Shown: one piece after another, positions 16,503 to 62,509 of the stretch
Layout: each line of letters starts with the position of its first letter
Position numbering within the stretch: the first letter of the stretch is position 1
Source of the DNA: Thermodesulfobacteriota bacterium
GTDB lineage: Bacteria; Desulfobacterota; Desulfobaccia; Desulfobaccales; 0-14-0-80-60-11
Direction of reading: 5' to 3'
DNA length: 64,000 bases
Assembly: GCA_049322315.1 (NCBI GenBank)
Contig: JBMORF010000037.1
Span: 3,864 to 67,863 of the forward strand
Notes under the pieces: model-generated
What the model saw: only the letters and a program-made list of their open reading frames with translations
Databases searched by the model: none
Told to the model about the DNA's origin: nothing
Program-made: the position numbers and the translations under genes

Positions 16503-19500
16503 ATGAAAGCTGGTAATGGCATCAACTGCAGCACCATACCCTTAACCGGGGTCAAACTCTCCTCGCGTAGCTTTGATCCGGACTATCCTTATGGCCTTCT
16601 CCTTGTTCAACTCCGGCCTAAATTCGCTGAAGGAGTTAGAGGGTGCCCCATTAGGCAAAAAATTTCCTCCGATTACCATGAAAAGATTTTCGAGATACTA
16701 AGTTTTGCCATTGAGCGTAAGGTGCATTTCTGTGTATTGCCGGAATACGCTATACCGATCGCTTGGGTCAATGAAATACTGAGAATAGTGGCTGCTAATG
16801 CCCCCCCAAACAGTGTTTTCATTCTGCCCCTGGAACATCTTGAGGGTGAGCATCTACCATGGCTCTTAGAGGAGGCTGGAGTAGCACCGGAGTTCCAAAT
16901 ATCCTACCAGAAAGAACTGACCCAAAGCTCAGGGAAGAGGGTGCTAAACTTATGTTGGATTTTGGCCAAAGGTGAGATGGGCGAACTCCACTCTCATTTT
17001 CAAGCGAAGTTTTATCCCGCGGAAATTGAAGAACCTCCCCACTTATATCCTCACCGTTTTCAAGGTGGACGAGCCTTGCGAATATTCAAAACCGACGATG
17101 AATCACCCCGCACTTTTGTAATTTTTATTTGCTTCGACTTTATAGGCCAGGAACCTGGTTCCAGCAATCTTTTAACAGTCCTCCAGAACCACATGATGCG
17201 GGAGCAGCGACAAGTTGACTGGTTGCTGGTCCCTCAGTGTAATCCCAGACCGATTCATTCAAAATTTCTGCAAGCTCTTGACCTCTTTTATCAGAATCAA
17301 TTGTTAGATGACCCTTCACACAAAAAGGGCGCTACCGCAATATTTTGGATCAATACTTCCGGTGGGTTCTCTAACCCTCTTGCAACCGTTGGCTCTTTTG
17401 GGGGATCGGCGCTTGTGGGGCGATTTCGATCTTATGAAACAGAACTTACCACCTCCTTCCCTTGTCCCGCTAAATTAGGAATCTACCGTCGAATGGTCAT
17501 TAAAATCGAAGAAGAAGTGGCCTTTCTGTATGCTGACAAGCCATTGTCTGAAAAAAGCAGAATGGACATCACGGGTCGGAAAGGGTTTTTGCTGGAATTT
17601 TACCATTGGTCCCCTTCTACCAAATGGACTCTAATTAATGATCCCAATAATCCTCCCTGGAACCCTGGTTTTTTCCGGTCACATTTCAAACTTCTTGAGT
17701 CGCTGGCTCGATGGCATGGCAAGGAGCAAGACCGCAAGGTAAGCGGAGATTTACCACAGATTTCTGATTATATTCCCCTAAGAATAGAACTGGAACAACG
17801 GGACTTCCAAACACAGGAACAACGGGACTTCCAAGCATTGTATCCAGAAAAGCTTTTGAGTAAGTGTTTAGAGCCTGGCTGGGCAAAGGGTAGATGGTGG
17901 GGGACTTTTGACACAGATTATTTTCTAAGAAGCCGCGGTAAATTTTTACTTGTTGGAGAGGTAGGAACAGGAAAAACAACCATGCTTCATTGGCTTGCAT
18001 CTAAAATCGCAATTGACATGCAACGTCTCCCTTTTTACCTAAATTTGCGGGACATTAGAGGCATTGTTACTTATGATAAACTCTCCCGTGCCTTTTCCAA
18101 TTATGCCAAACCTCATATACCAAGAATTGCGAAAGGCCACTTCGATCAACTCTTGGACCAAGGTCGTTTAGTTTTTCTTTTTGATGGGTTAGACCAGGTT
18201 TCGATCGAGGATTACGGAACCCTTGTGCGACAATTGCTTCTTCTTGTCAAGGGTAATGAGCTGATCCTTGCCACAAGGCCAACTCCCGCCCGATACCTTG
18301 AGGACATCCGCGACCTGAACGTCCTGAGGCTGAAACCCTTCGACGAGGATGATAGAAAAGCTTACTTCGGCGATAGCCTGTATGAAAGAGCAATTGAATA
18401 CTGTGCTATGGCCCCGGAACTGACCAAAGTTCCCATATTAGCTTATATGGTTAAGCGGCTTCTTATTGCTGGTGATTCTCCAACCCAAGGGAAACGGTCA
18501 GGCCTCTATGCATCTTTTATCAACCATATATTATTCACACAACATAGTTCTTTAATTTCCCAGGCAAACCGTGTGCATCGTACATTGAAAGCACTGGCAT
18601 TTTGGTCCCTGGCTGCCGTTGATCCACAGTTTGGCTTTGCTGACTATGATGTTTTTGACCAGCATAACGAAGGACGCGTGAACGAACGGAAACTCTTAGA
18701 CTTCGGACTAGTTAATTCTCTATTGGAACGGGGACAAGGGTCCAGACCCCAATTGTTCTTTACTCACCAATCATTTCAGGAGTTCCTTGCAGCCCAATAT
18801 GCTTTAGAGAATAAAACTGCGAAAGCTTTGGTATTGAAGGAAATGTGGCGCTACAAGTGGCAGGAAGTCATAAAGTTCATGGTAGGATTGGATGAGAAAG
18901 GAGAAATTTTAAGTACAATATACAAAGGATCGGAAAAAGATAACGTAATCCATGGGTATCTGTTTTTAGCGGCTAAATACTTTCCAGAAGCCGCATTCTA
19001 TGACAAAACCATGGCGGCTTCTATCGAGGATGCTCTTACTTCTTTGAGCTTGACAGAGCCCTTTCAAGGTGAAGCCCTCCAGGCTCTTGCCCTGCTAGGG
19101 ACATCATCATCTCTGGGTCGAATCATCGACCTTATGGAAACCTCGGAGATACTCTCCAAGAAGGCGTTATTTTCCCTTGAAGAAGGTTTGCGGCACTTAC
19201 CTGATCAGTTTATTCTTGATAAGCTTATCACCATTGTAGCTAAATTTCTCACTGATGAGGAAAATTGGATACGTGCAGTCGCCATTAGAGTCTTATCGAA
19301 CCTTGGGAAACATCAGCTTATTGAGCCCATAATCTATATTGGCAAAAATATTTTTGATAAGCACCCACTTGTACACCAGGAAGCCATTAAGGCTTTGCGG
19401 TATCTGGGAAAACATCTTTCGCCTGAGGTTATCCTGGGGGTGGCACAACGTCTCTCCGAGGCAAGGCCAGAGTTACGCTGGGCTACCCTTCACTTGTTAA

Positions 19501-20426
19501 GGGCGCAGGGGGAAGACCCTCCTCCTAAGAAATCCATACGATTCATCAATTGGAATATAGAAGGGCATCGAGTTCTCATTGACGCCCTTGTTAATCCAGA
19601 GAACCTTTACCCTGATCTAATCCCCGAAGTGGCTCAATGGGTTGCCGAGACGGACCAACTTGATCGTAAATTTTTTGTTGACGATCTAATTACGTTGGGG
19701 GAAATACCTTACGAACTAATCCCTCGGGTGGATCAATGGCTTTCTGATTTAGACCCTCAGGAGCATTTCTCTTTGCTTGGGGTTCTTCCATCTAATAAAT
19801 GCGTGGATGGAGATATGGCGGTCCAAAAGGAATATCGTCCTGCCATTTACGCTCTAAAGCCTCTTTTTGAGGAGCCTTCTCCATTGACAGACCTCCCGAA
19901 TGAGCTCATTCCTGAGGTGACTAACTGGTTCTGTGATCCAGACCATGGGGTGCGCTTAGTCGCAGTTTGTGCCCTGAAAGCCTTTCCAGAGATTCTTCCG
20001 CCTGGGCTCATTCCCAAAGTGGCCAAGTGTCTTGCCGATGATTACCCAGATGTGCGTTGGGAGGCCCTCTATAGTATTTGGTGGAGGGAAACACATTTGT
20101 GGCAGGATATGCTTATCGAACTCATTCCCGAAGTAGCTGAGTGTCTTAACGATGAAGTCCCAATGGTGCGTCAACATGCTATTCAAGCTCTAAGTACCTT
20201 TGAGGGGACTTTTCCGCCTGGGCTCATTCCCAAAGTGGCCAAGTGTCTTGCCGATGAAGACGAAGGTGTGCGTCGGGAGGCTTTTAATATCTTGAGAGAG
20301 CTAAGTCGGTCGCATGAAGAAGTTTGGCAACTTAAGCCATCCAAAGAAACCGCTTCAAGGGAAAAAATATTTAGCAAGAATTCTCAGCCATCAGAATCAG
20401 ATAACGGAGATGAACCTCCTTTTTAA
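16503..20426 (+). CDS. CN-hydrolase (nitrilase superfamily)-like + NACHT-type STAND NTPase + HEAT-repeat protein, 1307 aa
   Basis: CN-hydrolase order of motifs: FCVLPEY (E81), FQAKFYPAEIEE (K169), FVIFICFDF (C210). NACHT: LLVGEVGTGKTT, LVFLFDGLDQV, ILATRP, FTHQSFQEFLAAQYA. C-terminal HEAT-like repeats such as LIPKVAKCLADDYPDVRWEAL. Only plus-strand gene in the area. AT-richer by eye. Confidence 0.8.
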   Translation: MKAGNGINCSTIPLTGVKLSSRSFDPDYPYGLLLVQLRPKFAEGVRGCPIRQKISSDYHEKIFEILSFAIERKVHFCVLPEYAIPIAWVNEILRIVAANAPPNSVFILPLEHLEGEHLPWLLEEAGVAPEFQISYQKELTQSSGKRVLNLCWILAKGEMGELHSHFQAKFYPAEIEEPPHLYPHRFQGGRALRIFKTDDESPRTFVIFICFDFIGQEPGSSNLLTVLQNHMMREQRQVDWLLVPQCNPRPIHSKFLQALDLFYQNQLLDDPSHKKGATAIFWINTSGGFSNPLATVGSFGGSALVGRFRSYETELTTSFPCPAKLGIYRRMVIKIEEEVAFLYADKPLSEKSRMDITGRKGFLLEFYHWSPSTKWTLINDPNNPPWNPGFFRSHFKLLESLARWHGKEQDRKVSGDLPQISDYIPLRIELEQRDFQTQEQRDFQALYPEKLLSKCLEPGWAKGRWWGTFDTDYFLRSRGKFLLVGEVGTGKTTMLHWLASKIAIDMQRLPFYLNLRDIRGIVTYDKLSRAFSNYAKPHIPRIAKGHFDQLLDQGRLVFLFDGLDQVSIEDYGTLVRQLLLLVKGNELILATRPTPARYLEDIRDLNVLRLKPFDEDDRKAYFGDSLYERAIEYCAMAPELTKVPILAYMVKRLLIAGDSPTQGKRSGLYASFINHILFTQHSSLISQANRVHRTLKALAFWSLAAVDPQFGFADYDVFDQHNEGRVNERKLLDFGLVNSLLERGQGSRPQLFFTHQSFQEFLAAQYALENKTAKALVLKEMWRYKWQEVIKFMVGLDEKGEILSTIYKGSEKDNVIHGYLFLAAKYFPEAAFYDKTMAASIEDALTSLSLTEPFQGEALQALALLGTSSSLGRIIDLMETSEILSKKALFSLEEGLRHLPDQFILDKLITIVAKFLTDEENWIRAVAIRVLSNLGKHQLIEPIIYIGKNIFDKHPLVHQEAIKALRYLGKHLSPEVILGVAQRLSEARPELRWATLHLLRAQGEDPPPKKSIRFINWNIEGHRVLIDALVNPENLYPDLIPEVAQWVAETDQLDRKFFVDDLITLGEIPYELIPRVDQWLSDLDPQEHFSLLGVLPSNKCVDGDMAVQKEYRPAIYALKPLFEEPSPLTDLPNELIPEVTNWFCDPDHGVRLVAVCALKAFPEILPPGLIPKVAKCLADDYPDVRWEALYSIWWRETHLWQDMLIELIPEVAECLNDEVPMVRQHAIQALSTFEGTFPPGLIPKVAKCLADEDEGVRREAFNILRELSRSHEEVWQLKPSKETASREKIFSKNSQPSESDNGDEPPF

Positions 20427-42639: not shown

Positions 42640-44757
42640 CTAGTCGATGACAGGCACTGCCACACAGCGGCAGTTGATGATCTGCTCCGCCGGGCCGCCG
42701 GGATCACAAGGATAGAGGCAACCGTTGGGAAAGGGCATCCCCCGGGGCACCACCATGCCTTCCATGAACTGGTGGGTCTCCCGCACCTCCGTGTCCCCTG
42801 CGGTCCACCACTGGATCTTCTCGACCCCCAGTTCCGCCATGGCCGCATCCCGGGCCGGGGCCGCGGCCTGGCCCGTCTCCGTGCGGGCGATGTTGAGACT
42901 CCGGGCTTCCGAGAAGCCGAAGAGGTCCCGGACCCGCTGCTGCAGCTCGTTCACCGTCTCCGTCTTGGTCAGTCCTTCCAGCAAGGTTTCCCGGAGTTTC
43001 TCACGGGTGTAGTCGTTGATCCGGGTGACTTTGATGAGCTTGTCTTTCAAGACTTGCATGGCCGCGGTGTCCGCCAGGACGAAGTTGGCGGGATCGGCCC
43101 CCAGCTCCACAAACAAGGCTTTGCCGGCCTCATTACCGATGGTGAGATACAGGGGCCAGGCGAGCTTCTTCAAAATTTCGTTGGCTTCTTCCAGGTCGAA
43201 AAGCAGGTCTTCCGCCATATATTCCCGGAGCCGGGCTTTGGCCAGTTTCTCTGCCAGGAGCTTGATCTGGAACGCCTCCTGCCATGAGAAAAACTTCTCC
43301 ATCTTCCCTTTGAATTTCCCCATCAGGGCGGCCCACAGGTGGTGGTACTGCTGCCAGGAGACCCTGGGGTCCAAACTCCGGCGCACGATGACCGTAGGCC
43401 CGGCAAGGTGGAGATAGGCGGCCGGCAAGGGGGGTAAACCGGCCGCCTTCTCCGGCTGCGAGGGAGGAACAGTAGCGGAAGGAGTGTTGGGAAATCCCTG
43501 GCTGCCCACGGGCATCAGGTTGAACGGCAGATACCCTACATCCCCGCCTTCAACCTTGGGAAAGCCCAGGTTCAGGGTCTCGTTCACCACGTTGAAAGGC
43601 ACCCCCATCTGCCAGACCTTCTGGCCCGCCTCCAGCATTTCCTTCAGGTCTTCCTTGAGGGCGTCCACCGCGGTGCGGTCGAACTCGGCCCAGGTATCCG
43701 GGCCGGAAAGTTTGGCGCAGAGCTGGTGCCAGATGACAAACTCGAAGAGCGCCATCTTGGGAAGAAGCGTCTTGGTCCAGAAGACCCGGTCCTGGCTCTT
43801 GGCTGTGGCGAAGTTGAGGTCCTCGTAGATGCCCAGTTCGCTCTTGGGCACCTTGAACGCGGCCATGATCTCTTCCCGGTTGAACTTGCGCTGCTCCAGG
43901 AAGTCCATGTCCTTCTGGGAGAGGCCCGTCTGCTTATAAGTGACCCCGCCTTCCAATAGGGCGATGGCGTGGGCCTTGCTTACCCCCTGGTGGCGGTCGT
44001 TCCACTGGGCCAAGAGGCGTTTGAACTCTTCGTCCCCCAGGTTGGCCGAGGTCTCCAGGATTCCACCGGGCTGAGCGTTGTTCTTGAAAAACGCAGCATT
44101 ATAGCGGCTGGCCCAGAAATCCTGGTCGATCCCCGCCTGGGCCGCCTGCAGAGGAGCCAGACCCCGGTAATCGTGGTAGGGATTGAAGTAACGGAAGAAG
44201 ATGATCTCGTGGGCCTCGAAAGGAATCTTCTTGCCCCCCTTCTCGTAAGTCCACCCGGCGATGAGGCCGGTATCCTTGTCCACCACTTCCTTAAAGCGAT
44301 TGGGATGGAAGGCCCAGATTTCTTTGGGCACCTCCCGGGGATTCTTTCGCTCGGCGATATAGAAAGCTTCACCGCACAGCCCCAGGTAGATGAAGGTGGC
44401 CTCGATGAGCTGGGCCCCGGACATCATGGGGTTAGGGGTCTCGAAGAGCTGCACCAGGGGGCCTGCTTCCACCAACTTCTTGTCTTTGCGACTTCCAGTG
44501 AAGAAAAGCAGAGGGATGCCCATGAGGTTCTGGGCGATGGCGTTGACGCAAGAATAGACCCAGACGTGATCTTTGTAGGGGTGGGTCAACCCACCCCCAC
44601 GTAGCTGGGCCATGAGCAGGTGGGGAGAAAGGAAGAAGAGGCGGTCCGTCTCGGGAAAGGTGGGCAGAGCAGGCAAGGAGGCGTCAGGAGCCTGGCGCTT
44701 GGCCCCAAGGCCGCCTAATCGAAATGCGTAATTGATCCCCCTGCTAATGAGTCCCAA
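42640..44757 (-). CDS. Portal protein fused to a MuF/SPP1 gp7-like head-morphogenesis domain
   Basis: 705 aa. Portal-like N-terminal ~420 aa. The C-terminal region (NIARTETGQAA...WWTAGDTEVRETH...INCRCV) is the Phage_Mu_F signature. Only TTG/ATT start candidates (stop at 44767-44769 just upstream). Confidence 0.8.
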   Translation of the reverse strand: MGLISRGINYAFRLGGLGAKRQAPDASLPALPTFPETDRLFFLSPHLLMAQLRGGGLTHPYKDHVWVYSCVNAIAQNLMGIPLLFFTGSRKDKKLVEAGPLVQLFETPNPMMSGAQLIEATFIYLGLCGEAFYIAERKNPREVPKEIWAFHPNRFKEVVDKDTGLIAGWTYEKGGKKIPFEAHEIIFFRYFNPYHDYRGLAPLQAAQAGIDQDFWASRYNAAFFKNNAQPGGILETSANLGDEEFKRLLAQWNDRHQGVSKAHAIALLEGGVTYKQTGLSQKDMDFLEQRKFNREEIMAAFKVPKSELGIYEDLNFATAKSQDRVFWTKTLLPKMALFEFVIWHQLCAKLSGPDTWAEFDRTAVDALKEDLKEMLEAGQKVWQMGVPFNVVNETLNLGFPKVEGGDVGYLPFNLMPVGSQGFPNTPSATVPPSQPEKAAGLPPLPAAYLHLAGPTVIVRRSLDPRVSWQQYHHLWAALMGKFKGKMEKFFSWQEAFQIKLLAEKLAKARLREYMAEDLLFDLEEANEILKKLAWPLYLTIGNEAGKALFVELGADPANFVLADTAAMQVLKDKLIKVTRINDYTREKLRETLLEGLTKTETVNELQQRVRDLFGFSEARSLNIARTETGQAAAPARDAAMAELGVEKIQWWTAGDTEVRETHQFMEGMVVPRGMPFPNGCLYPCDPGGPAEQIINCRCVAVPVID

Positions 44758-45100: not shown

Positions 45101-46162
45101 ATGAAAATATCTGAAGGAGAACTCGCCAGACGGGTAAAAGAGGCCCTTTCTTCCTGTTTAACAAAGGTCCCTTTTCTCAAAATAAATGCTATTGACCAGG
45201 AGTCCATTCAAGAAACTGCTATGCCGGATTTTCTGATCACCCTGGAAGTCCCGGCAGGAATTCGGACCTTTGTGGTTGAAGTTAAGAGCACCGGCCAGCC
45301 CCGAGTGGCTCGGGAAGCGGTAAACCAACTTTTGAGATATTCCAAGGCATTTCCTCAGGCTTTTCCCGTATTCATTGCTCCCTACATCTCCCCGGCGGCT
45401 GCTGAAATCTGCGAACAAGCAGGAGTCGGATACATAGACTTCTCCGGCAACTGCCGCCTTTGCTTTCAAGAGGTCTATATTGAGAAAACGGGCAACCCCA
45501 ATGTTTTTTCCGAGAAGAGAGACCTGCGTTCGCTCTATTCCCCAAAAGCGGAAAATGTCCTCAGGGTGCTTCTCTCAAATCCCAGAAGGAGATGGAAAAT
45601 CCAGGAACTTGCCAATGAGGCCGGTGTTAGTGTTGGACAGGTTGCTAAAGTAAAAAACCTCTTAAGCAACCGCGAGTGGCTCAGCGAAGCCGATGGCATG
45701 AAATTATCTGAACCAGAAAAACTACTGTCTGAGTGGGCTGATAATTATAACTTTCGCAAAAATCGGGTTAGAGACTTTTATTCTCTGAAAAGTGTCTCGG
45801 AAATTGAATTTAGTTTGGCTAAATTGTGCAAGGCAAAGAAGCTGACTTATGCCTTGACGTCCTTCTCCGGAGCCGCCAGGCTGGCTCTTGCCGTGCGTTA
45901 TCAGCGAGTTTTTGTTTATGTGCAAGAAACGGAGGAGGATATTGCCGGTTTGCTCAATTTGAAGGAAGTGCCCAGCGGTGCTAACATCAGTCTGTTGATT
46001 CCCTATGATGAGGGGATTTTTTATGGCAGTCAGGATATTAACGATATCCGCATTGCTTCCCCCATCCAGATTTATCTTGACTTGAAAACTTACCGCGGCA
46101 GGGGCGAGGAAGCAGCCGATATGCTCCTTGAACAGGTGATCAGGAAAAAATGGCAACAATAA
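45101..46162 (+). CDS. AbiEi-like antitoxin/regulator with an extra N-terminal PD-(D/E)XK-like module
   Basis: 353 aa. DFLITLEV...FVVEVKSTG (D...ExK). wHTH WKIQELANEAGVSVGQVAKVKNLL. C-terminal region resembles the AbiEi C-domain. Overlaps the downstream gene by 13 nt. Confidence 0.55.
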   Translation: MKISEGELARRVKEALSSCLTKVPFLKINAIDQESIQETAMPDFLITLEVPAGIRTFVVEVKSTGQPRVAREAVNQLLRYSKAFPQAFPVFIAPYISPAAAEICEQAGVGYIDFSGNCRLCFQEVYIEKTGNPNVFSEKRDLRSLYSPKAENVLRVLLSNPRRRWKIQELANEAGVSVGQVAKVKNLLSNREWLSEADGMKLSEPEKLLSEWADNYNFRKNRVRDFYSLKSVSEIEFSLAKLCKAKKLTYALTSFSGAARLALAVRYQRVFVYVQETEEDIAGLLNLKEVPSGANISLLIPYDEGIFYGSQDINDIRIASPIQIYLDLKTYRGRGEEAADMLLEQVIRKKWQQ

Positions 46163-46974
46163 GAGATTACAACGAAATTGCTGTAAAAGCAGCACGGTCG
46201 GTGCTACTTGAACTTGCCCACCTCTTGGGGGAATACCGTGAAGATATGGTGCTCGTGGGAGGTTGGGTCCCAGAATTTATCTTTGCTGACAAGATCAAAC
46301 CACACTGTGGCAGCATAGACGTGGATCTCGCCCTGGATCACCGCAAGCTCCAGGAGCAGGGATACAAATCTATTCAGGAACTTCTTCTTAGCAGGGGATA
46401 CGAGCAAGGAAAGCAACCTTTTATTTTTTTAAGACGTGTTCTCGTGGGAGACCAGGAGATTACAGTTGAGGTTGATCTGTTAGCCGGAGAATATGAAGGA
46501 ACCGGGAGAAGTCACCGCACACAAAAGATGCAAGATATCCGGGCCCGCAAAGCCAGGGGATGTGATCTAGCCTTTGATATGTTTGTTGAAGTGCCGATTG
46601 AAGGAGAACTGCCCGGTGGTGGTAGAGACGTTATAACTATTCGTGTGGCCTCGATAGTGCCTTTCCTGATCATGAAAGGCATGGCTTTAGATAATCGATT
46701 AAAAGAAAAGGATGCGTGGGATATTTATTACTGTATATTGAACTATCCTGGCGGACTGGATGCTTTGGTCGAAAAATTTAGGCCTTACTTGAAGCACCGA
46801 TTGGTTCGTGAGGGATTGCAAAAAATTGCCCAACACTTCGCTTCTGAAAACCAGGTAGGTCCAAAATTTGTAGCTGATTTCGATGAAATAACTGACCCTG
46901 AACAACGCGACATTTTGCAGCGGGACGTTTATGAGCGAGTCAATTACATTCTAACAAAATTAGGTATCGTATGA
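46150..46974 (+). CDS. Nucleotidyltransferase, AbiEii/AbiGii-like toxin
   Basis: 274 aa. LVGGWVPEF ... GSIDVDLAL fits the minimal NTase G-x and DxD pattern of AbiEii. Confidence 0.55.
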   Translation: MATIRDYNEIAVKAARSVLLELAHLLGEYREDMVLVGGWVPEFIFADKIKPHCGSIDVDLALDHRKLQEQGYKSIQELLLSRGYEQGKQPFIFLRRVLVGDQEITVEVDLLAGEYEGTGRSHRTQKMQDIRARKARGCDLAFDMFVEVPIEGELPGGGRDVITIRVASIVPFLIMKGMALDNRLKEKDAWDIYYCILNYPGGLDALVEKFRPYLKHRLVREGLQKIAQHFASENQVGPKFVADFDEITDPEQRDILQRDVYERVNYILTKLGIV

Positions 46975-47819: not shown

Positions 47820-49142
47820 CTAGTGAAGTAAAGCCATTCCGGGACGAGCAGCATGGCGAGCAAACCAGGCCTGCAAATCAACAAGCGCTTGGCCGCGAAG
47901 CCTTGCAAAAGGGCTCATCCTTCTCGCCAATTCTAGTTTAATTGATATCAGGTGGCGAGAACTAAAATAAATATTATATTCCCCCTTTATCCCTCTCTTC
48001 CCTTTAAGGAAAAGTGGACCAAACTCCCAAATGAATCCTGCCTTCGGGTTTATCTTGCTCCGCTCATTTGTTGGAAGAACTAACCCGAAGAGGAAACGGG
48101 ATACACGGATATTCTTCTGGGCATGATCACAATTTGCGTTTATTTCTATGAGGATTGGAATATTGATATCCGCCAAGTGATTTATCTTAGTGACTGTTCC
48201 CGGTAGTCCACTCTTGCCCTGAACGAAATCTTCAATGAGTTGCCGGCTTTCCGGCAGCCACTTTGGCCTCTTTTTATTCGGGAACATGTATATGTTGCCA
48301 CCTGTAAAACGATCCAAGCCTTCAAAGGCCAGATGAAGCATGGCATTAATTTTGGCCTTTTTCTCGGTCCCACAGTCATCTGAAGCCCCAAGAATCTCTT
48401 GAGGATTTAATTCAGAGGACAGGGCAACAGCATGGCTTTCCATACGATCAGCATAGAGTGGTCCTAGAGAACTATAGACGGCATCCAGACAGGTACTGGG
48501 GTCAAGATGCTGGTCTGCCTGTGCCTTAGCCATTGCATGTAAAAGCTGCAGGAACTGTTCTTTCCAATCTTGACGGTATCTTGTGCGGTTCCTAGTTTGA
48601 GGCGCCACCAGGGTTGAGAGCCCATTGGTCACCTCAGTAGCAGCCTGAAAACACTTTCCTTCCCAGCGTTGTAAAAAGAAAAGAGGGCTAAACTCGCTCA
48701 GCGCCTCTCTAAGCTTATGAGATATTACCGAAAGACTGAAATCACCATTTACATCCTTGCATTCCGCTTTTGTAAGCATGAGTGAAAGGATCGGTTTCGG
48801 CAGATCTTTTTCTGAAAATATGGTCCGCTCAAAGAGGTTAAAAAGTTCCGAGTGGTAGGTCCAGGCAATGACCGTAAACGGTCCATTATCATTTTTCAGA
48901 ATTCTTTTGAGGCAGGCTATTAGTGCGGAAACTTTAGACCTGTCGGGAACGCCACCGCCGATCAGATCCATATCAAGAATTGCAAGCCGAACTCCAGTAA
49001 GAAGTTCCGTGGGCAGTCCCGCAGGATTACCATCAAAATATGCAATGGGGACGCCTTCCTTCGCGAAAGCTCCAAGAATCGGCAAGGCTTCACTTTCCTG
49101 ATCATCAATCACAACTACTCTGGCACCAGCAAGGCCAGTCAT
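47820..49142 (-). CDS. Receiver (REC) domain protein with an uncharacterised ~300-aa C-terminal domain
   Basis: VVVIDDQ (D13 D14), LAILDMDL (D57), TVIAWT (T95) are the receiver-domain landmarks. The rest has no motif I recognise. ATGA overlap with the upstream gene. Confidence 0.65.
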   Translation of the reverse strand: MTGLAGARVVVIDDQESEALPILGAFAKEGVPIAYFDGNPAGLPTELLTGVRLAILDMDLIGGGVPDRSKVSALIACLKRILKNDNGPFTVIAWTYHSELFNLFERTIFSEKDLPKPILSLMLTKAECKDVNGDFSLSVISHKLREALSEFSPLFFLQRWEGKCFQAATEVTNGLSTLVAPQTRNRTRYRQDWKEQFLQLLHAMAKAQADQHLDPSTCLDAVYSSLGPLYADRMESHAVALSSELNPQEILGASDDCGTEKKAKINAMLHLAFEGLDRFTGGNIYMFPNKKRPKWLPESRQLIEDFVQGKSGLPGTVTKINHLADINIPILIEINANCDHAQKNIRVSRFLFGLVLPTNERSKINPKAGFIWEFGPLFLKGKRGIKGEYNIYFSSRHLISIKLELARRMSPFARLRGQALVDLQAWFARHAARPGMALLH

Positions 49143-51208
49143 TTGTGATTACCTCCAAAAACCAGGGCAACAACGGCACCATCAAATTCTTTTGGCAATG
49201 CAAGATCTCCAGATTGAGGGAATTCCAGCCTTCCACCCTGAGCTATCATGACCTGATCTGCCAGGTGAAGTCCCAACCCCATACCATCAGGCTTTCTGCT
49301 AATGAATGGTTCAATCAAGTATTCGGGAGGATCGAGAAAACCTGGGCCGTTGTCAGCAACGACGATAGCTGGACCACCAAGAAGTTCCTTCGATATGCCG
49401 ATATATATCCGTTTCTTATTTTTTAACTCTCCCCATCTGGTATCGAGCCACCAAATGGCATTATCTATAAGGTTCATGATGGTTGAGATTATGAGGCGAC
49501 GGCTGCATTTGACTTCGAAATCACCCTGTTGCTGATTAACGTTAATTTGGATACCATGGTTCTTGAGTCTTAGTTCCGTATTGAATGCAGCCCTGGAGAT
49601 TAAATTGCTCGCTCTTTCACGACTTGTTCCCGACCTTCGTATCAAGGCCGCATAGCCTTCTATAAGGTCAGCAAGGTGCTTAGCCAAGGCGGTGATACGC
49701 TTACCTGGCTGTTCTCGCTTAACTGCTATAACGAGCTCCTTTACCCCTTTCTCCACTTCATGAATGACGACCGAAAGACTCAACCCAGCACTTGCGCTGG
49801 TCAGAAAGCGGTCCCGTATCAAGAGAAAATCAGACTCTATTCTGTCGAGATATGGCCCCAAGTCCTTCGTTAGATTCTTTTTTTCTATAAGTTCACGAAC
49901 TTCGGAGAGATCCTGAAGAACTGGCTCTCTTACACGCTTGCTGTATGCGTTTCGTATCCTGGTCTTATCTTTGTTCCGTTCAGTCACTATGTGGTTAACG
50001 GCTGCTGTGACGGCTTCTCTGAATGCACGGAAGGCCTTATTATCGACAAATCCCTCACGATTTGTCTTTTCTACCAGACCTGGGCTATCAGCCAGATGAA
50101 GTGATACTGCTCCTATAACAAGATTGTTACTGATGCGGCGAGTGGGAACATTTACTCTACGCCCTCCGAGATCCAGCCAGTCATTGCCTGCTTCACCATA
50201 ATCATAAACTCGTATTCCATCGCGATAGACCCTTATTCCTCCATTTTCTGCGAGGAAGCTCTTTAATCCCTTTTTGTCTGTGACTCCAAGGGTGAGGATT
50301 TTGGGATCAAGGTCAAAAATATATAGGTCAAGATCCACTGGCCCCACAGCGTTCTTAAGGTTATCAATAGCCTCGGCAGAGATTTTGATGGGTACAGTCT
50401 TGTTTTCCTGTCTGGAGGTAACCCTGTTCATGGCCGGGAGAGGAACGAATTCATAATCATAACTAACTTGGTTTCCCTGGATATTACACTTTGCCCTAAA
50501 GAGAGAATACTCCAGAACTTCCTCCACCGTCATAAGATCTTTCAGCCATTCAGAATTCTCGGAAAGAATAAGGTCAGCTTTGAATTCACCTTCGTCGTCA
50601 AAAGGTGAACAGATTGAGGTTACAGACCGGTACAACTCCCGAACCATTCCCCGGTTCCAGGGATTCCTAAGATTAGTTATTTCTATTATGGTGCCGGTGC
50701 GGCGACCCCCGAAAACCTCAGGCATGCGTTCCCTGACCTGCACGGGTACCTGTTCGAGATAGTCATGCTTATCGAACTCTGCCCAGTTAATATCAACGAC
50801 AATTTCAGGGTTATTGATTTTACGGGTAACTAGGGTTACATGGTTACCAAGCTTGTGAGCTGCAAAACGTCCGACTCCTTTCTCACCCAGAGGCAGTCTC
50901 CTGTACTTTTCGGTACGGTGTCCTGATCTTCTTTGCTTATCCCGAAAGTCTGTACCGGGTTCGAGCCAGACGGTTGCAACAGTCAGATAGTCCATTCCAG
51001 TACCAGAATCTTCAACTATTATGCTTCCATGATGTGAATCTGTCAGGTTAGACATGGTAACCGTGGCATCAGGAGAATCAGCATCATAGGCGTTTTTCAC
51101 CAATTCAAATACAGCAATACCCGGATCACGGATGAGCTGGTCACCTAACAGAAGAAGCATCCGTGCTCTGGGTCTGAACGGCAATTTCTCTGATCGGTAC
51201 TTTGTCAC
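49139..51208 (-). CDS. Double GHKL protein: N-terminal MORC/Hsp90-like ATPase plus C-terminal histidine-kinase-like module
   Basis: N-terminal: ELVKNAYDA, VEDSGTGM, GEKGVGRFA. C-terminal: H-box-like VIHEVEKG, NLIDNAIWW, VADNGPGF, GMGLGLHLA. Confidence 0.7.
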   Translation of the reverse strand: MTKYRSEKLPFRPRARMLLLLGDQLIRDPGIAVFELVKNAYDADSPDATVTMSNLTDSHHGSIIVEDSGTGMDYLTVATVWLEPGTDFRDKQRRSGHRTEKYRRLPLGEKGVGRFAAHKLGNHVTLVTRKINNPEIVVDINWAEFDKHDYLEQVPVQVRERMPEVFGGRRTGTIIEITNLRNPWNRGMVRELYRSVTSICSPFDDEGEFKADLILSENSEWLKDLMTVEEVLEYSLFRAKCNIQGNQVSYDYEFVPLPAMNRVTSRQENKTVPIKISAEAIDNLKNAVGPVDLDLYIFDLDPKILTLGVTDKKGLKSFLAENGGIRVYRDGIRVYDYGEAGNDWLDLGGRRVNVPTRRISNNLVIGAVSLHLADSPGLVEKTNREGFVDNKAFRAFREAVTAAVNHIVTERNKDKTRIRNAYSKRVREPVLQDLSEVRELIEKKNLTKDLGPYLDRIESDFLLIRDRFLTSASAGLSLSVVIHEVEKGVKELVIAVKREQPGKRITALAKHLADLIEGYAALIRRSGTSRERASNLISRAAFNTELRLKNHGIQINVNQQQGDFEVKCSRRLIISTIMNLIDNAIWWLDTRWGELKNKKRIYIGISKELLGGPAIVVADNGPGFLDPPEYLIEPFISRKPDGMGLGLHLADQVMIAQGGRLEFPQSGDLALPKEFDGAVVALVFGGNHK

Positions 51209-51210
51209 TC

Positions 51211-52167
51211 TTATTGATCCTGTGAGATGAGAGACTTAACAATGTATTCCATCACTGGAGGACATACTGCATTTCCCATCAGTTTGACTTTATCACGTCT
51301 TACACCGGATTCAAGTATGTAGCTCTTTTTAAAACCCATTGCGAGTTTCAGTTCCTCTGGCTGCAACATGCGCATCTTATGGCCATTTGGAGAAGGTTTT
51401 ACATAAGCGAAGCGATCAAGCGTCGTAATAGTCCTTAAGGGGCGATCAAGTGACTGCCATCCGCCACTTTGATCAGTTCCATAATATACAATAAGGAAAT
51501 GCTCTTTCACCCCGAGTTCAGCCATTGCTCGCTGTGCGCGTTCTATCGTAGGCTTTGCTCGTCCGGGTGAAAATAATGGAGAAAAAGAATAGTTGCCATT
51601 AAAATCAATAACTGAACTGGCTGGTTTTATTTCGGTGTCAGGTTTCCCTACCTCTTCCGGTGACTCCAGAAGTGAACAAACAATGAAGAGCCGCCTCCTG
51701 GATTGAGGTACGCCGAAATCCATGGCATTGAGTTTCTCCACCTTAATCTTATACCCGAGTTTCTCCAAATTATGTATGAGCCTGGGGTAAGCATCCCAGG
51801 ATCCCATATGTACGACATTCTCAATCACAATCCATTTAGGCAGGAATTCCTTAGCAAATCTGACAACTTCAAAAGCTGTGAGCCTGCTCTCTTCACATCG
51901 AGCGGCTGCGCCTTTGGCACATGTGTGGTTGGTACATTCAGGAGAAGCGATGATAAGATCAATATCCCCGATCAGCCTGTGGAGTCGCTTTGGAGAGACC
52001 CTCCTTATATCCTTATTGATAACGCGTGCGTCGGGGAAATTCCTGAGGTAGCAGTCCGATGCCATGTTCCAGAAGTCAATACCTGCAACGATCTCGGCAC
52101 CCCCCTCCAAGGCTCCAAGACTGCTGCCACCGGCTCCATGAAATAGATCAAGTGTCCGTATTCTCAT
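51211..52167 (-). CDS. DNA (cytosine-5)-methyltransferase
   Basis: DLFHGAGG (motif I), ASPECTNH (motif IV variant), ENVVHM (VI), QSRRRLFIV (VIII), GNAVCPPV (X). Start taken at MRIRTLD. Confidence 0.8.
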   Translation of the reverse strand: MRIRTLDLFHGAGGSSLGALEGGAEIVAGIDFWNMASDCYLRNFPDARVINKDIRRVSPKRLHRLIGDIDLIIASPECTNHTCAKGAAARCEESRLTAFEVVRFAKEFLPKWIVIENVVHMGSWDAYPRLIHNLEKLGYKIKVEKLNAMDFGVPQSRRRLFIVCSLLESPEEVGKPDTEIKPASSVIDFNGNYSFSPLFSPGRAKPTIERAQRAMAELGVKEHFLIVYYGTDQSGGWQSLDRPLRTITTLDRFAYVKPSPNGHKMRMLQPEELKLAMGFKKSYILESGVRRDKVKLMGNAVCPPVMEYIVKSLISQDQ

Positions 52168-52395
52168 AAGTTCCGATAAAAACAAAAATTGCAAATTAGC
52201 ACGAATTCTCTTTGTGCACCACCCCCATTACCATGGGGATTTATCCATCCTGAGATTAACACAACGTATAATCCCATACAAGATAAATAATTAAAATTAT
52301 ACAATCTTTTCGGAATGTTCTGGGACGAGGTTGGGGTAGAATTTAACCTATATTTTTAAGGCTGACTTACAGCGCTTGGTTCTTTTGCTCAATAT

Positions 52396-52424
52396 AAAAA
52401 CCGGGGTCCCCGAAGGGCCCCCGG
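52396..52424 (-). terminator. Intrinsic terminator closing the prophage early operon
   Basis: Minus strand: CCGGGGGCCC-TTCG-GGGACCCCGG followed by TTTTTAT, starting 1 nt after the stop of ORF 52426..52635. Confidence 0.65.
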
Positions 52425-52636: not shown

Positions 52637-53041
52637 TCAAGCCGCCTCCTTCACCATCACCTGGATGATTCTTCCCTCTTCAAGCCACCAGACCTGGATC
52701 TCTGGTGCTGGGGAGGGGGCGGCGTAGTCCGAAGTGGCGAAAACCAGGATGGTGTCGAAGTCCTGGCGCACGGCCAGCAGGAAGTCGATCAGTTGGGCTC
52801 TGTTCACGGAATCGAGTATGTCCGCTTCGTCGATCAACAGGAGGCGGACGCCGGCAAGGGTAGCCAGCACGTATTGGATGCAAATTCCTGCCCGGTATTT
52901 GGCGGACTTACGCAGGCAGGCATAAGATGACCTGCGATAGACCTCCAGGTCGACCCCAAGGTTCAGGTTAAAATCGAGGTAGGTTACATGCCCATCTTCG
53001 GCTAAACGAACCCAGACATACTCATTCAGGTTGGCTTCCAT
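52637..53041 (-). CDS. ABC/SMC-type ATPase C-terminal-half-like protein (Walker B only)
   Basis: 134 aa with VRLLLIDEADILD and ILVFATSD but no P-loop. The start is 1 nt after the upstream stop. Confidence 0.4.
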   Translation of the reverse strand: MEANLNEYVWVRLAEDGHVTYLDFNLNLGVDLEVYRRSSYACLRKSAKYRAGICIQYVLATLAGVRLLLIDEADILDSVNRAQLIDFLLAVRQDFDTILVFATSDYAAPSPAPEIQVWWLEEGRIIQVMVKEAA

Positions 53042-53042
53042 A

Positions 53043-54146
53043 TTACTTCACCTTGTTAAAGCCGAATTTTTCGGTCGGCTTGCTCGGAGCCAGCTCCAGG
53101 ACCTTTGGGATGAGGTCTTTGCGCCTTAGCTTTCTCAGACCACTTTCCAGGTTGGTTTTGGTGAGATTGAGGAGACCCCAAACGTGGTCACGCTCAAGGC
53201 CGGCCTCCAGGAGATAATCGATGATCTCCTTCGGGTTCAACTCATAGGCGGTAGATATCTTGGGGCCGTAGACGACGTCTCCCACCGGCACCGGCCCGCT
53301 CTCCTTGACGTAGCGTTTCAGGTTGTTCTTCAGCTCCGTATCCATCGTCTGGATGGCCAGGAGCAGGGTAGCCGTCTTAACTGCGTCCTCCCGGGTAGTG
53401 GGATAGAGGATGTTCACCGGGACGATGGCCTGGGCCATCACCGGGCAATGGGCCATGACCCCGCACCAGCCGCAGAATGACCCGGGGGTCGGTTCAAAGT
53501 CTTTCCGGGTTTCGATCTCAGTGATCCGTTTCTCCAGCTCGTCCGGAACCGTTGCCAGGTCATCGGGGAGAAGAATAACTTCCCGCTCGGCGCCGTACCT
53601 GAGGAAGTGGAGGCGCAGGAGAATCTCTTTCGCATCGGAGTAGCGAGTCTCTCGCACCCCCCAGCCATAGATCCGCAGTTGCAGATTTTTCTCCACCGTC
53701 TCGGGGACCACCCGGTTAGATTTCCAATCCTGCACCACAGCCAGCTCTCCCTGCCGGTAGGTCCAATCCACCACCATCCGAAAAAAGGCGTCATCTCCAA
53801 AATAATCGGTAGGCTTCCAGTTCCGGTCAAAGGCCAGCCTCAGCTCCACCCCAGGGGATTCCATGGGGGGCAAAATGAAGGAGTTGAAGAACCGGGGCCA
53901 GATGTCGAACACATCAGCCGGGGCTTCTTTAGGCGTGAGCCCCTCGGCATAGGACCAGTCGGTCTGGAGATTGGCCCCGATCAGCCGATCCAGATATTGA
54001 GCCGTCAAGTCATGGAGCATCTTTCCGATAACCAGAGCCTCCGTTTCTGCCCGTGGGATCCGCTCGATGTAGATCTTCTGATAGGCGAAGGGGCATTTCT
54101 CGTCCGTCTCCAGCTTACTGAAGGAATAGCTTGGTTTTTTGGCCAT
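53043..54146 (-). CDS. PD-(D/E)XK nuclease, Cas4/RecB-like with a C-terminal Cys cluster
   Basis: N-terminal Cys (EKCPFAY), VVDWTY...VVQDWKS core, CGWCGVMAHC at the C-terminus. Start at MAKKPSYSF (RBS GGAGG). Confidence 0.65.
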   Translation of the reverse strand: MAKKPSYSFSKLETDEKCPFAYQKIYIERIPRAETEALVIGKMLHDLTAQYLDRLIGANLQTDWSYAEGLTPKEAPADVFDIWPRFFNSFILPPMESPGVELRLAFDRNWKPTDYFGDDAFFRMVVDWTYRQGELAVVQDWKSNRVVPETVEKNLQLRIYGWGVRETRYSDAKEILLRLHFLRYGAEREVILLPDDLATVPDELEKRITEIETRKDFEPTPGSFCGWCGVMAHCPVMAQAIVPVNILYPTTREDAVKTATLLLAIQTMDTELKNNLKRYVKESGPVPVGDVVYGPKISTAYELNPKEIIDYLLEAGLERDHVWGLLNLTKTNLESGLRKLRRKDLIPKVLELAPSKPTEKFGFNKVK

Positions 54147-54212
54147 CCCTGCCTCCATGAAAAAGGTAGGGGGCCCGGGAAAGGCCCCCTTTAATTAAAG
54201 GATAGTAAGGGG

Positions 54213-61525: not shown

Positions 61526-62509
<984 letters not shown>

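Follow-up and report, generated by a model that had tools for sequence, protein, structure and literature searches.

Adjacent genes for a soluble protein with two ATPase domains and a receiver-like partner were described in 2021 by Bellieny-Rabelo, Pretorius and Moleleki (Genome Biol Evol, PMC8011034), in a computational account of their architecture that included no experiments. The first protein combines HATPase_c_3, a His-Glu/Asp H-box (HEF_HK, PF19191) and HATPase_c; the receiver-like neighbour (Response_reg_2, PF19192), which shows 91.6% linkage, is without any other known domain. C5-methylases were often located upstream of the pair and Vsr most often downstream, and descent from paraMORCs was proposed. 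Members of the latter group are encoded beside cytosine methylases and Vsr in restriction-modification operons (Iyer, Abhiman and Aravind 2008, PMC2292703). We analysed a stretch of 64,000 nucleotides from a Thermodesulfobacteriota bacterium (contig JBMORF010000037.1, positions 3,864 to 67,863; hereafter the window), in which a cytosine methylase, a protein with two GHKL ATPase domains and a receiver-like protein are encoded by one operon.

One related system has been examined experimentally. Ambrosia (AbrR-AbrA-AbrB-AbrC-AbrD; bioRxiv 10.1101/2025.09.30.679545) defends Pseudomonas aeruginosa against phages and has been reported in Gammaproteobacteria only so far. It is composed of an XRE regulator, an N6-adenine methylase, the HATPase protein AbrB, the receiver AbrC and an HNH nuclease. 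The substitutions AbrB N40A and AbrC D60A each abolish phage defence, and infection induced reporter genes that had been inserted into the cluster. The original prediction for the window, a reading of the sequence by a model, had matched the operon to no named defence system. This no longer holds, as the same architecture was already published (PMC8011034) and a homologous module is found in Ambrosia.

The operon in the window comprises four genes:

51211-52194, minus strand: open reading frame (ORF) of the C5 methylase, 327 amino acids (aa)
49139-51208, minus strand: ORF of the double-GHKL protein, 689 aa
47820-49142, minus strand: ORF of the receiver-like protein, 440 aa
47062-47814, minus strand: gene of a Mig-type HhH-GPD glycosylase, 250 aa

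The methylase and GHKL genes are separated by 2 nucleotides (nt), and the GHKL and receiver genes share a 4-nt ATGA overlap. The coordinates, the 2-nt gap and the ATGA overlap of the original prediction were recovered when the ORFs were re-derived. The glycosylase gene is located 5 nt 3' of the receiver-protein gene and is the fourth gene of the operon. The module had been presented as consisting of three genes; all three are there, but the fourth had been overlooked.

Our comparison covered 34 loci spread over many phyla, of which 3 were viral (from IMG/VR) and 31 bacterial or plasmid-borne. In every one the GHKL gene was found directly upstream of the receiver gene, and often the stop codon of the one overlapped the start codon of the other. 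The upstream flank was intact in 25 bacterial loci, and 24 of these had a C5-methylase; the remaining locus was flanked by IS66. This synteny excludes chance adjacency. The original prediction depended on the genes travelling together across genomes, and they do. Vsr was encoded in about 15 loci, and Vsr or Mig in most. A Mig-type glycosylase gene adjoined the cassette in the window and in three other loci (L018, L024 and L027), and neither gene was present in the cassettes L001/L012 and L021. The positions of the methylase and of the repair gene around the pair varied, but the pair was never split, so that the pairing of the GHKL and receiver genes is obligate and its linkage to methylase and repair genes is recurrent. 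Identities of the GHKL protein versus the receiver protein were 67% versus 46%, 53% versus 28% and about 40% versus 25%. Cassettes were located in defence islands and mobile elements, including plasmids and prophages, and genes of Mrr, GmrSD and Qat adjoined them in other loci. A tblastn search of 50,697 phage genomes with the receiver protein gave no match, and nor did a distant blastn search of E. coli genomes with the GHKL gene.

Two arrangements differed from the usual cassette. In Rhizobium/Brucella (L007, 8771-11708; L029, 578-3543) the pair stands beside a complete system of Dcm, Vsr and an EcoRII-type endonuclease, where the one methylation mark may serve two arms, with the pair as the second. 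On one metagenomic contig (L031, 32-2770) a C5-methylase is fused in frame to a double-GHKL protein in an ORF of 912 aa that the contig end cuts short; the fusion may be real or may stem from a sequencing error.

The 689-aa protein contains the Pfam domains HATPase_c_3 (aa 31-153) and HATPase_c (aa 573-663). Its features are the following:

50750-51118, minus strand: N-terminal Bergerat fold of the MORC/Hsp90/MutL type, aa 31-153 (PF13589, E 6.8e-14)
49760-49765, minus strand: codons of I482-H483, start of the H-box-like VIHEVEKG (translation checked)
49220-49492, minus strand: histidine-kinase-type catalytic (CA) domain, aa 573-663, with N, G1 and G2 boxes (PF02518, E 4.8e-13)

The residues of the N-terminal Bergerat fold are N39, D67xGxG and G108xxGxG. 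When a profile of 32 relatives was compared with PDB sequences, the N-terminal module matched Hsp90 (Endoplasmin) and MutL, both weakly, and the C-terminal module matched histidine kinases only (best E 2.6e-8). These matches, together with those in Pfam, support the two Bergerat folds of the original prediction, one MORC/Hsp90/MutL-like and one kinase-like, and all motifs named there (ELVKNAYDA, VEDSGTGM, GEKGVGRFA, VIHEVEKG, NLIDNAIWW, VADNGPGF and GMGLGLHLA) were found in the protein. His483 (codon 49760-49762), which is followed by Glu484, is the candidate phospho-acceptor. In an alignment of 32 close relatives, His483-Glu484 and the N, G1 and G2 residues of both ATP sites were invariant, and the same was true of relatives from Rhizobium and from Burkholderia plasmids with 42% identity. 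The conserved histidine of the kinase module, on which the original prediction could have failed, is therefore present down to this level of identity. A HisKA-type DHp domain was not detected by Pfam, which found the CA domain PF02518 alone. The position four residues past the histidine is occupied by Lys (HEVEK) and not by Thr or Asn. According to a 2026 survey, PF19191 is likewise without Thr/Asn at this position, and the 689-aa protein shares this feature of HEF_HK.

The best-conserved stretch of the protein, GGIRVYRDGIRVYDYGE...EKTNREGFV (aa 320-390), is common to AbrB. Judged from its sequence, this segment probably corresponds to the S5-type transducer of MutL and MORC ATPases. We infer a layout of a MORC/MutL-like ATPase head, a probable S5-type transducer, a helical H-box region and a kinase-type catalytic domain. 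Such a succession of head, transducer and C-terminal dimeric helical core would parallel MutL and Hsp90, the kinase core standing where these have their dimerisation domain, and therefore we propose a clamp-gated kinase. The protein is homologous to the validated defence protein AbrB. Its score against the BbrUII/HgiDII family NF050001 was 60.9 bits and involved the N-terminal head only; the cutoff of 550 places it outside that family. In PADLOC it matched the REase_II model only.

The 440-aa protein consists of a divergent receiver fold (aa 1-150), a three-helix bundle (aa 152-245) and a C-terminal alpha/beta domain (aa 259-440). Two features are of interest here:

48972-48974, minus strand: codon of Asp57, predicted phospho-acceptor at the end of beta3 (translation checked)
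47823-48311, minus strand: beta-rich C-terminal domain with a MazF/PemK/CcdB-like fold, aa about 278-440, candidate effector

Scans of the protein against Pfam, NCBIfam, PADLOC and PHROG found nothing, Pfam Response_reg was undetected even at E<=10, and a PDB sequence search returned chance matches only. We obtained an AlphaFold2 model with a pLDDT of 88.5, for which nearly all of the top 50 PDB matches in Foldseek were receiver domains (PorX, FixJ and Spo0F; E from 3e-4). As expected of a receiver domain, the model places D13/D14, D57, T95 and K125 where strands beta1, beta3, beta4 and beta5 end. The N-terminus thus models as a receiver fold. The original prediction had called it a canonical receiver domain with D13-D14, D57 and T95; the residues are present, but the term 'canonical' does not fit a domain that Response_reg does not match and that was seen through AlphaFold2 and Foldseek only. 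In an end-to-end alignment of 43 members, D13, D57, P88, P117 and K125 were invariant and D14 and T95 nearly so. Among 23 relatives with 19-46% identity, D57, K125, N266, G282, C338, D339 and R433 were invariant and D13 nearly so.

A profile search returned 2018 representatives of the family (clusters at 50% identity), essentially all of the same full-length architecture. We considered swapping of the C-terminal domain within the family and rejected it, as the longer matches differed from the rest by linker insertions and not in architecture. Members are called only 'hypothetical protein' in the public annotations that we saw.

A separate model of aa 150-440 (pLDDT 91.9) showed the three-helix bundle followed by the beta-rich domain. 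Its top 35 PDB matches were all MazF/PemK/YdcE toxins, with E-values of 9e-3 to 0.4 and target-normalised TM-scores of 0.52-0.64, and MazF/PemK toxins were again on top in the viral structure library BFVD. Cys338-Asp339 (codons 48126-48131, translation checked) are invariant along with G282 and R433. The domain probably has a MazF/PemK-like fold, as judged from this weak but consistent resemblance of the models. By eye, the order of strands and helices in aa 278-440 of the model parallels that of MazF. The domain differs from MazF, PemK and CcdB in that it shows no sequence similarity to MazF, has a helical insertion of ~40 residues, conserves a Cys-Asp pair and an Arg instead, and is fused to a receiver domain rather than paired with an antitoxin. 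Pfam PemK_toxin did not match the 440-aa protein. A MazF-like C-terminal domain is not described in Bellieny-Rabelo et al. (PMC8011034) or in the Ambrosia preprint.

The original prediction had suggested that the C-terminal 300 aa be searched for a nuclease, PLD or Sir2 fold. We ran this search, and Foldseek against the PDB and the viral library showed no nuclease, PLD, Sir2 or HNH fold, MazF/PemK being the one consistent, if weak, match. Neither Pfam nor Foldseek revealed a recognisable DNA-binding output domain, so that the protein does not look like an ordinary DNA-binding regulator. That the operon is without a recognisable restriction nuclease was borne out for the island in which it lies, by Pfam, NCBIfam, PADLOC and structure and profile searches. 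Because the conserved cassette contains no other gene for this role, the C-terminal domain is the only candidate effector: neither the GHKL nor the receiver protein shows a nuclease fold, and MazF/PemK is on top in two independent structure libraries.

A PD-(D/E)XK gene (53043-54158) was considered as the missing nuclease and rejected. It has phage-type G+C content (GC) and a DUF2800 match, lies beyond the terminator that precedes the operon, and is not conserved with the cassette.

The 327-aa ORF encodes a C5 cytosine methylase (Pfam PF00145 DNA_methylase, E 1e-41; TIGR00675, E 1e-36). Translation likely starts at the ATG at 52167, which gives a product of 318 aa. The closest solved structure is M.HhaI, which matches the catalytic half only, and the top PADLOC model is of the DrmMII type (E 1.6e-95). 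DISARM class 2 was considered for this reason and discarded, since only the methylase matches (DrmMII) and PADLOC found no drmA, drmB or drmC among the six island proteins scanned. The 250-aa protein has the Pfam domain HhH-GPD and a full-length match (E 3e-34) to 1kea, 'G-T mismatch repair enzyme', a structure deposited as a possible G-T mismatch repair enzyme, which we take to be the Mig enzyme of Methanobacterium. It is without the C-terminal domain of MutY and matches the PADLOC restriction-modification model 'Type II nicking endonuclease' (E 6e-35). From its sequence we predict a T:G mismatch repair enzyme, a functional counterpart of Vsr. Such a role implies that the methylase really methylates the host genome.

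Taken together, these results lead us to propose that the operon provides methylation-linked defence, in which the methylase and Mig act with a clamp-kinase that signals from His483 to Asp57 and the response is carried out by the receiver protein's C-terminal domain; we hold this to be somewhat more probable than all else considered here. The methylase would mark host DNA with 5-methylcytosine, and the glycosylase would mend the T:G mismatches that arise from its deamination. In a homodimer of the 689-aa protein, the MORC/MutL-like heads would engage DNA or a phage cue using ATP, and this engagement would govern the C-terminal kinase core. His483 would then be phosphorylated and the phosphoryl group passed to Asp57 of the 440-aa protein, where phosphorylation would turn on the MazF/PemK-like domain (Cys338-Asp339 and Arg433). 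For the window operon, we infer the role in defence, the His-to-Asp transfer, the cue sensed and the action of the C-terminal domain from its conserved residues and its relatives. We also considered a narrower version, in which the MazF/PemK-like domain is a phosphorylation-gated toxin (e.g. an RNase or an inhibitor of GHKL enzymes) that is released when the clamp-kinase meets unmethylated DNA. No DNA would be cut, and self-marking would be coupled to abortive infection by a His-Asp phosphorelay. We regard this version as speculative and, in all its details together, unlikely.

Several observations weigh against the proposed clamp-kinase. Biochemical evidence for phosphotransfer was found for no member of the family. 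In Ambrosia, pre-methylation of the phage was not protective, the authors prefer transcriptional control, and the effector is a separate HNH nuclease (10.1101/2025.09.30.679545). Among our loci the methylase family was exchanged while the GHKL protein was still 52-71% identical; it is therefore doubtful that a specific sequence is read by the pair itself, though the methylase may supply sequence recognition for it. The putative receiver and MazF-like assignments were made from predicted structures only, and the best Foldseek E-value for MazF is only 9e-3. A profile of the receiver-protein family gave no signal against CheY, AbrC and E. coli MazF, which are insensitive single-sequence targets. 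MazF catalysis operates without a Cys-Asp pair. Finally, PF19191 and PF19192 matched neither the window proteins (E<=10) nor 30 relatives, including those of Rhizobium and Burkholderia, and were absent from the precomputed Pfam annotations in three homology searches, the presence of both models in the Pfam copy used being unconfirmed; either the models are narrow or they were absent from the library.

The pair could instead be a regulatory two-component system, in which the GHKL protein senses infection or stress and the phosphorylated receiver controls the methylase or an unlinked restriction or defence gene. Bellieny-Rabelo et al. (PMC8011034) and the Ambrosia authors both proposed regulation, which would agree with the infection-induced reporter expression in the Ambrosia cluster and with the complete EcoRII-type restriction-modification system adjoining the alphaproteobacterial pairs. 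However, the 440-aa protein has no helix-turn-helix or other recognisable DNA-binding output, and its large C-terminal domain with invariant residues looks enzymatic. Moreover, the minimal cassette leaves only the methylase and the repair gene to be regulated, and we consider this explanation unlikely.

An ATP-dependent restriction enzyme that works without a phosphorelay seems to us quite improbable, despite the GHKL heads of real restriction enzymes, the weak BbrUII/HgiDII and PADLOC REase_II matches, and the restriction-modification operons in which paraMORCs accompany cytosine methylases and Vsr (PMC2292703). In such an enzyme the GHKL protein would be a clamp and the 440-aa protein a cryptic nuclease or DNA reader that uses its receiver fold for docking. 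The order of methylase, pair and repair gene is the usual restriction-modification layout, and the in-frame methylase-GHKL fusion of one metagenomic contig would fit as well. Yet neither protein shows a nuclease fold, and docking alone would require neither the full phospho-acceptor set nor the kinase-type CA domain and invariant His-Glu, all of which are conserved. The swaps of the methylase family, with no matching change in the pair, also speak against it. Least of all do we expect the MutL-like GHKL protein and its partner to be helpers of mismatch repair that aid Vsr or Mig at deaminated 5-methylcytosine and have no role in defence. A functional interaction of MutL and Vsr is known from E. 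coli (cited in PMC2292703) and Vsr or Mig is frequent in the cassette, but L001/L012 and L021 have neither, the homologous module of Ambrosia is needed for phage defence, and the cassettes are located in defence islands and mobile elements.

The receiver-protein family is large and extends over many phyla, plasmids and prophages, and we saw no biochemically characterised member of the minimal layout (methylase, double-GHKL protein, long receiver protein and repair gene) in the papers that we found. If phosphotransfer is true, the operon would show how a MORC/MutL-type ATP-driven DNA clamp can be wired to a kinase output and would represent restriction-modification-like immunity without a classical nuclease. 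As judged from the models, the question of the effector would come down to one domain that is MazF/PemK-like and has an invariant Cys-Asp pair. The invariant residues His483, Asp57 and Cys338-Asp339 are direct targets for mutation, and cytosine methylases beside GHKL/receiver pairs should not be annotated as orphan.

The four operon genes and a convergent AbiEi/AbiEii pair form an island of low GC (0.45-0.48 versus about 0.6). It is flanked on one side by portal, protease and capsid genes and on the other by PD-(D/E)XK, Gp3-like, DnaN-like and ParB genes. The prophage setting assumed in the original prediction is thereby confirmed as a low-GC accessory island between phage gene modules. A search for att-like repeats around the island returned short chance repeats only. 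One further feature lies upstream of the operon:

52195-52413, minus strand: intergenic region upstream of the methylase gene (pattern matches only)

Here a terminator-like hairpin (52401-52413) ends the preceding phage gene and is followed by an AT-rich segment of ~200 nt with promoter-like hexamers and then by the methylase gene. The counts of promoter and terminator patterns were not above those in shuffled sequence, and only the terminator at 52401-52413 is well placed.

The AbiE pair (45101-46974, plus strand) consists of an AbiEi-like protein of 353 aa (PF09952, E 2e-19) and an AbiEii-like protein of 274 aa (weak PF08843); an AbiEi/AbiEii pair is also located directly downstream of the cassette in an Anaerolineae locus (L001). 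A portal protein of 705 aa fused to a Mu F-like domain is encoded at 42640-44757 (minus strand); the interval from there to the island showed no terminase gene. At 52637-53041 (minus strand) an ORF of 134 aa has a Walker-B-like 'LLLIDEAD' segment only and no family match; insertion of the island may have cut off a phage ATPase here and left this remnant. A second low-GC stretch (~15-21 kb, GC 0.44-0.49) holds the gene of a 1307-aa NACHT and HEAT-repeat protein (16503-20426, plus strand), which may be an NLR/Avs-like defence gene. An IS110-family transposase (DEDD_Tnp_IS110 and Transposase_20) is encoded near the window end (61526-62476, minus strand).

Of the components of a type II restriction-modification system, the operon has the methylase, and searches of the island gave no endonuclease whose nuclease fold could be recognised. 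It is not a classical two-component system by Pfam, since neither the HisKA nor the Response_reg model was matched by the window proteins. Detocs has a sensor kinase with TPRs, a receiver that acts as a buffer and a nucleosidase as effector, and is not known to include a methylase. The likeness to the window operon is in the concept of an infection-sensing kinase and a receiver-fused effector (bioRxiv 10.1101/2023.01.24.525353); PADLOC gave no match to DtcA, DtcB or DtcC for the GHKL or receiver protein, with the presence of the Detocs models in the release used unconfirmed. Papers on DefensePredictor, CoCoNuT and BREX diversity do not describe the system.

With the paraMORCs and MORCs (PMC2292703) the window protein has in common the HATPase_c_3 head and the conserved segment that follows (GIRVYRDGIRV ... 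EKTNREG) and that fits an S5-type transducer, as well as the operon context of cytosine methylases and Vsr. It differs in its C-terminal extension, which is a kinase core of H-box and CA domain, and in having a receiver-like partner instead of a helicase or classical nuclease.

Ambrosia likewise encodes a methylase, a double-HATPase protein and a receiver protein in one operon. AbrB aligns over its first 399 aa with aa 10-389 of the 689-aa protein (28% identity, E 2e-39), AbrB N40 corresponds to N39 of the window protein, and the motif ILDEQL around AbrC D60 resembles ILDMDL around D57. Unlike Ambrosia's N6-adenine methylase, that of the window is of the C5 type, and AbrC has 209 aa whereas the window receiver protein has 440 aa with an extra conserved domain. 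There was no significant hhalign match between AbrC and the 440-aa family, and no HNH or XRE match among the six island ORFs of at least 250 aa that were scanned.

The closest correspondence is to the HEF_HK/Response_reg_2 pairs. The window GHKL protein has HATPase_c_3, a His-Glu H-box and HATPase_c and is putatively soluble, its adjacent partner models as a receiver-like (beta-alpha)5 fold that carries the acidic pair along with Asp, Thr and Lys, and the operon includes a C5-methylase and a deamination-repair gene. It differs from those pairs in carrying a Mig-type HhH-GPD glycosylase in the place of Vsr and in belonging to a prophage island. We conclude that the operon is a new, divergent and prophage-borne example of the kind described in 2021, one branch of which was experimentally validated in 2025.

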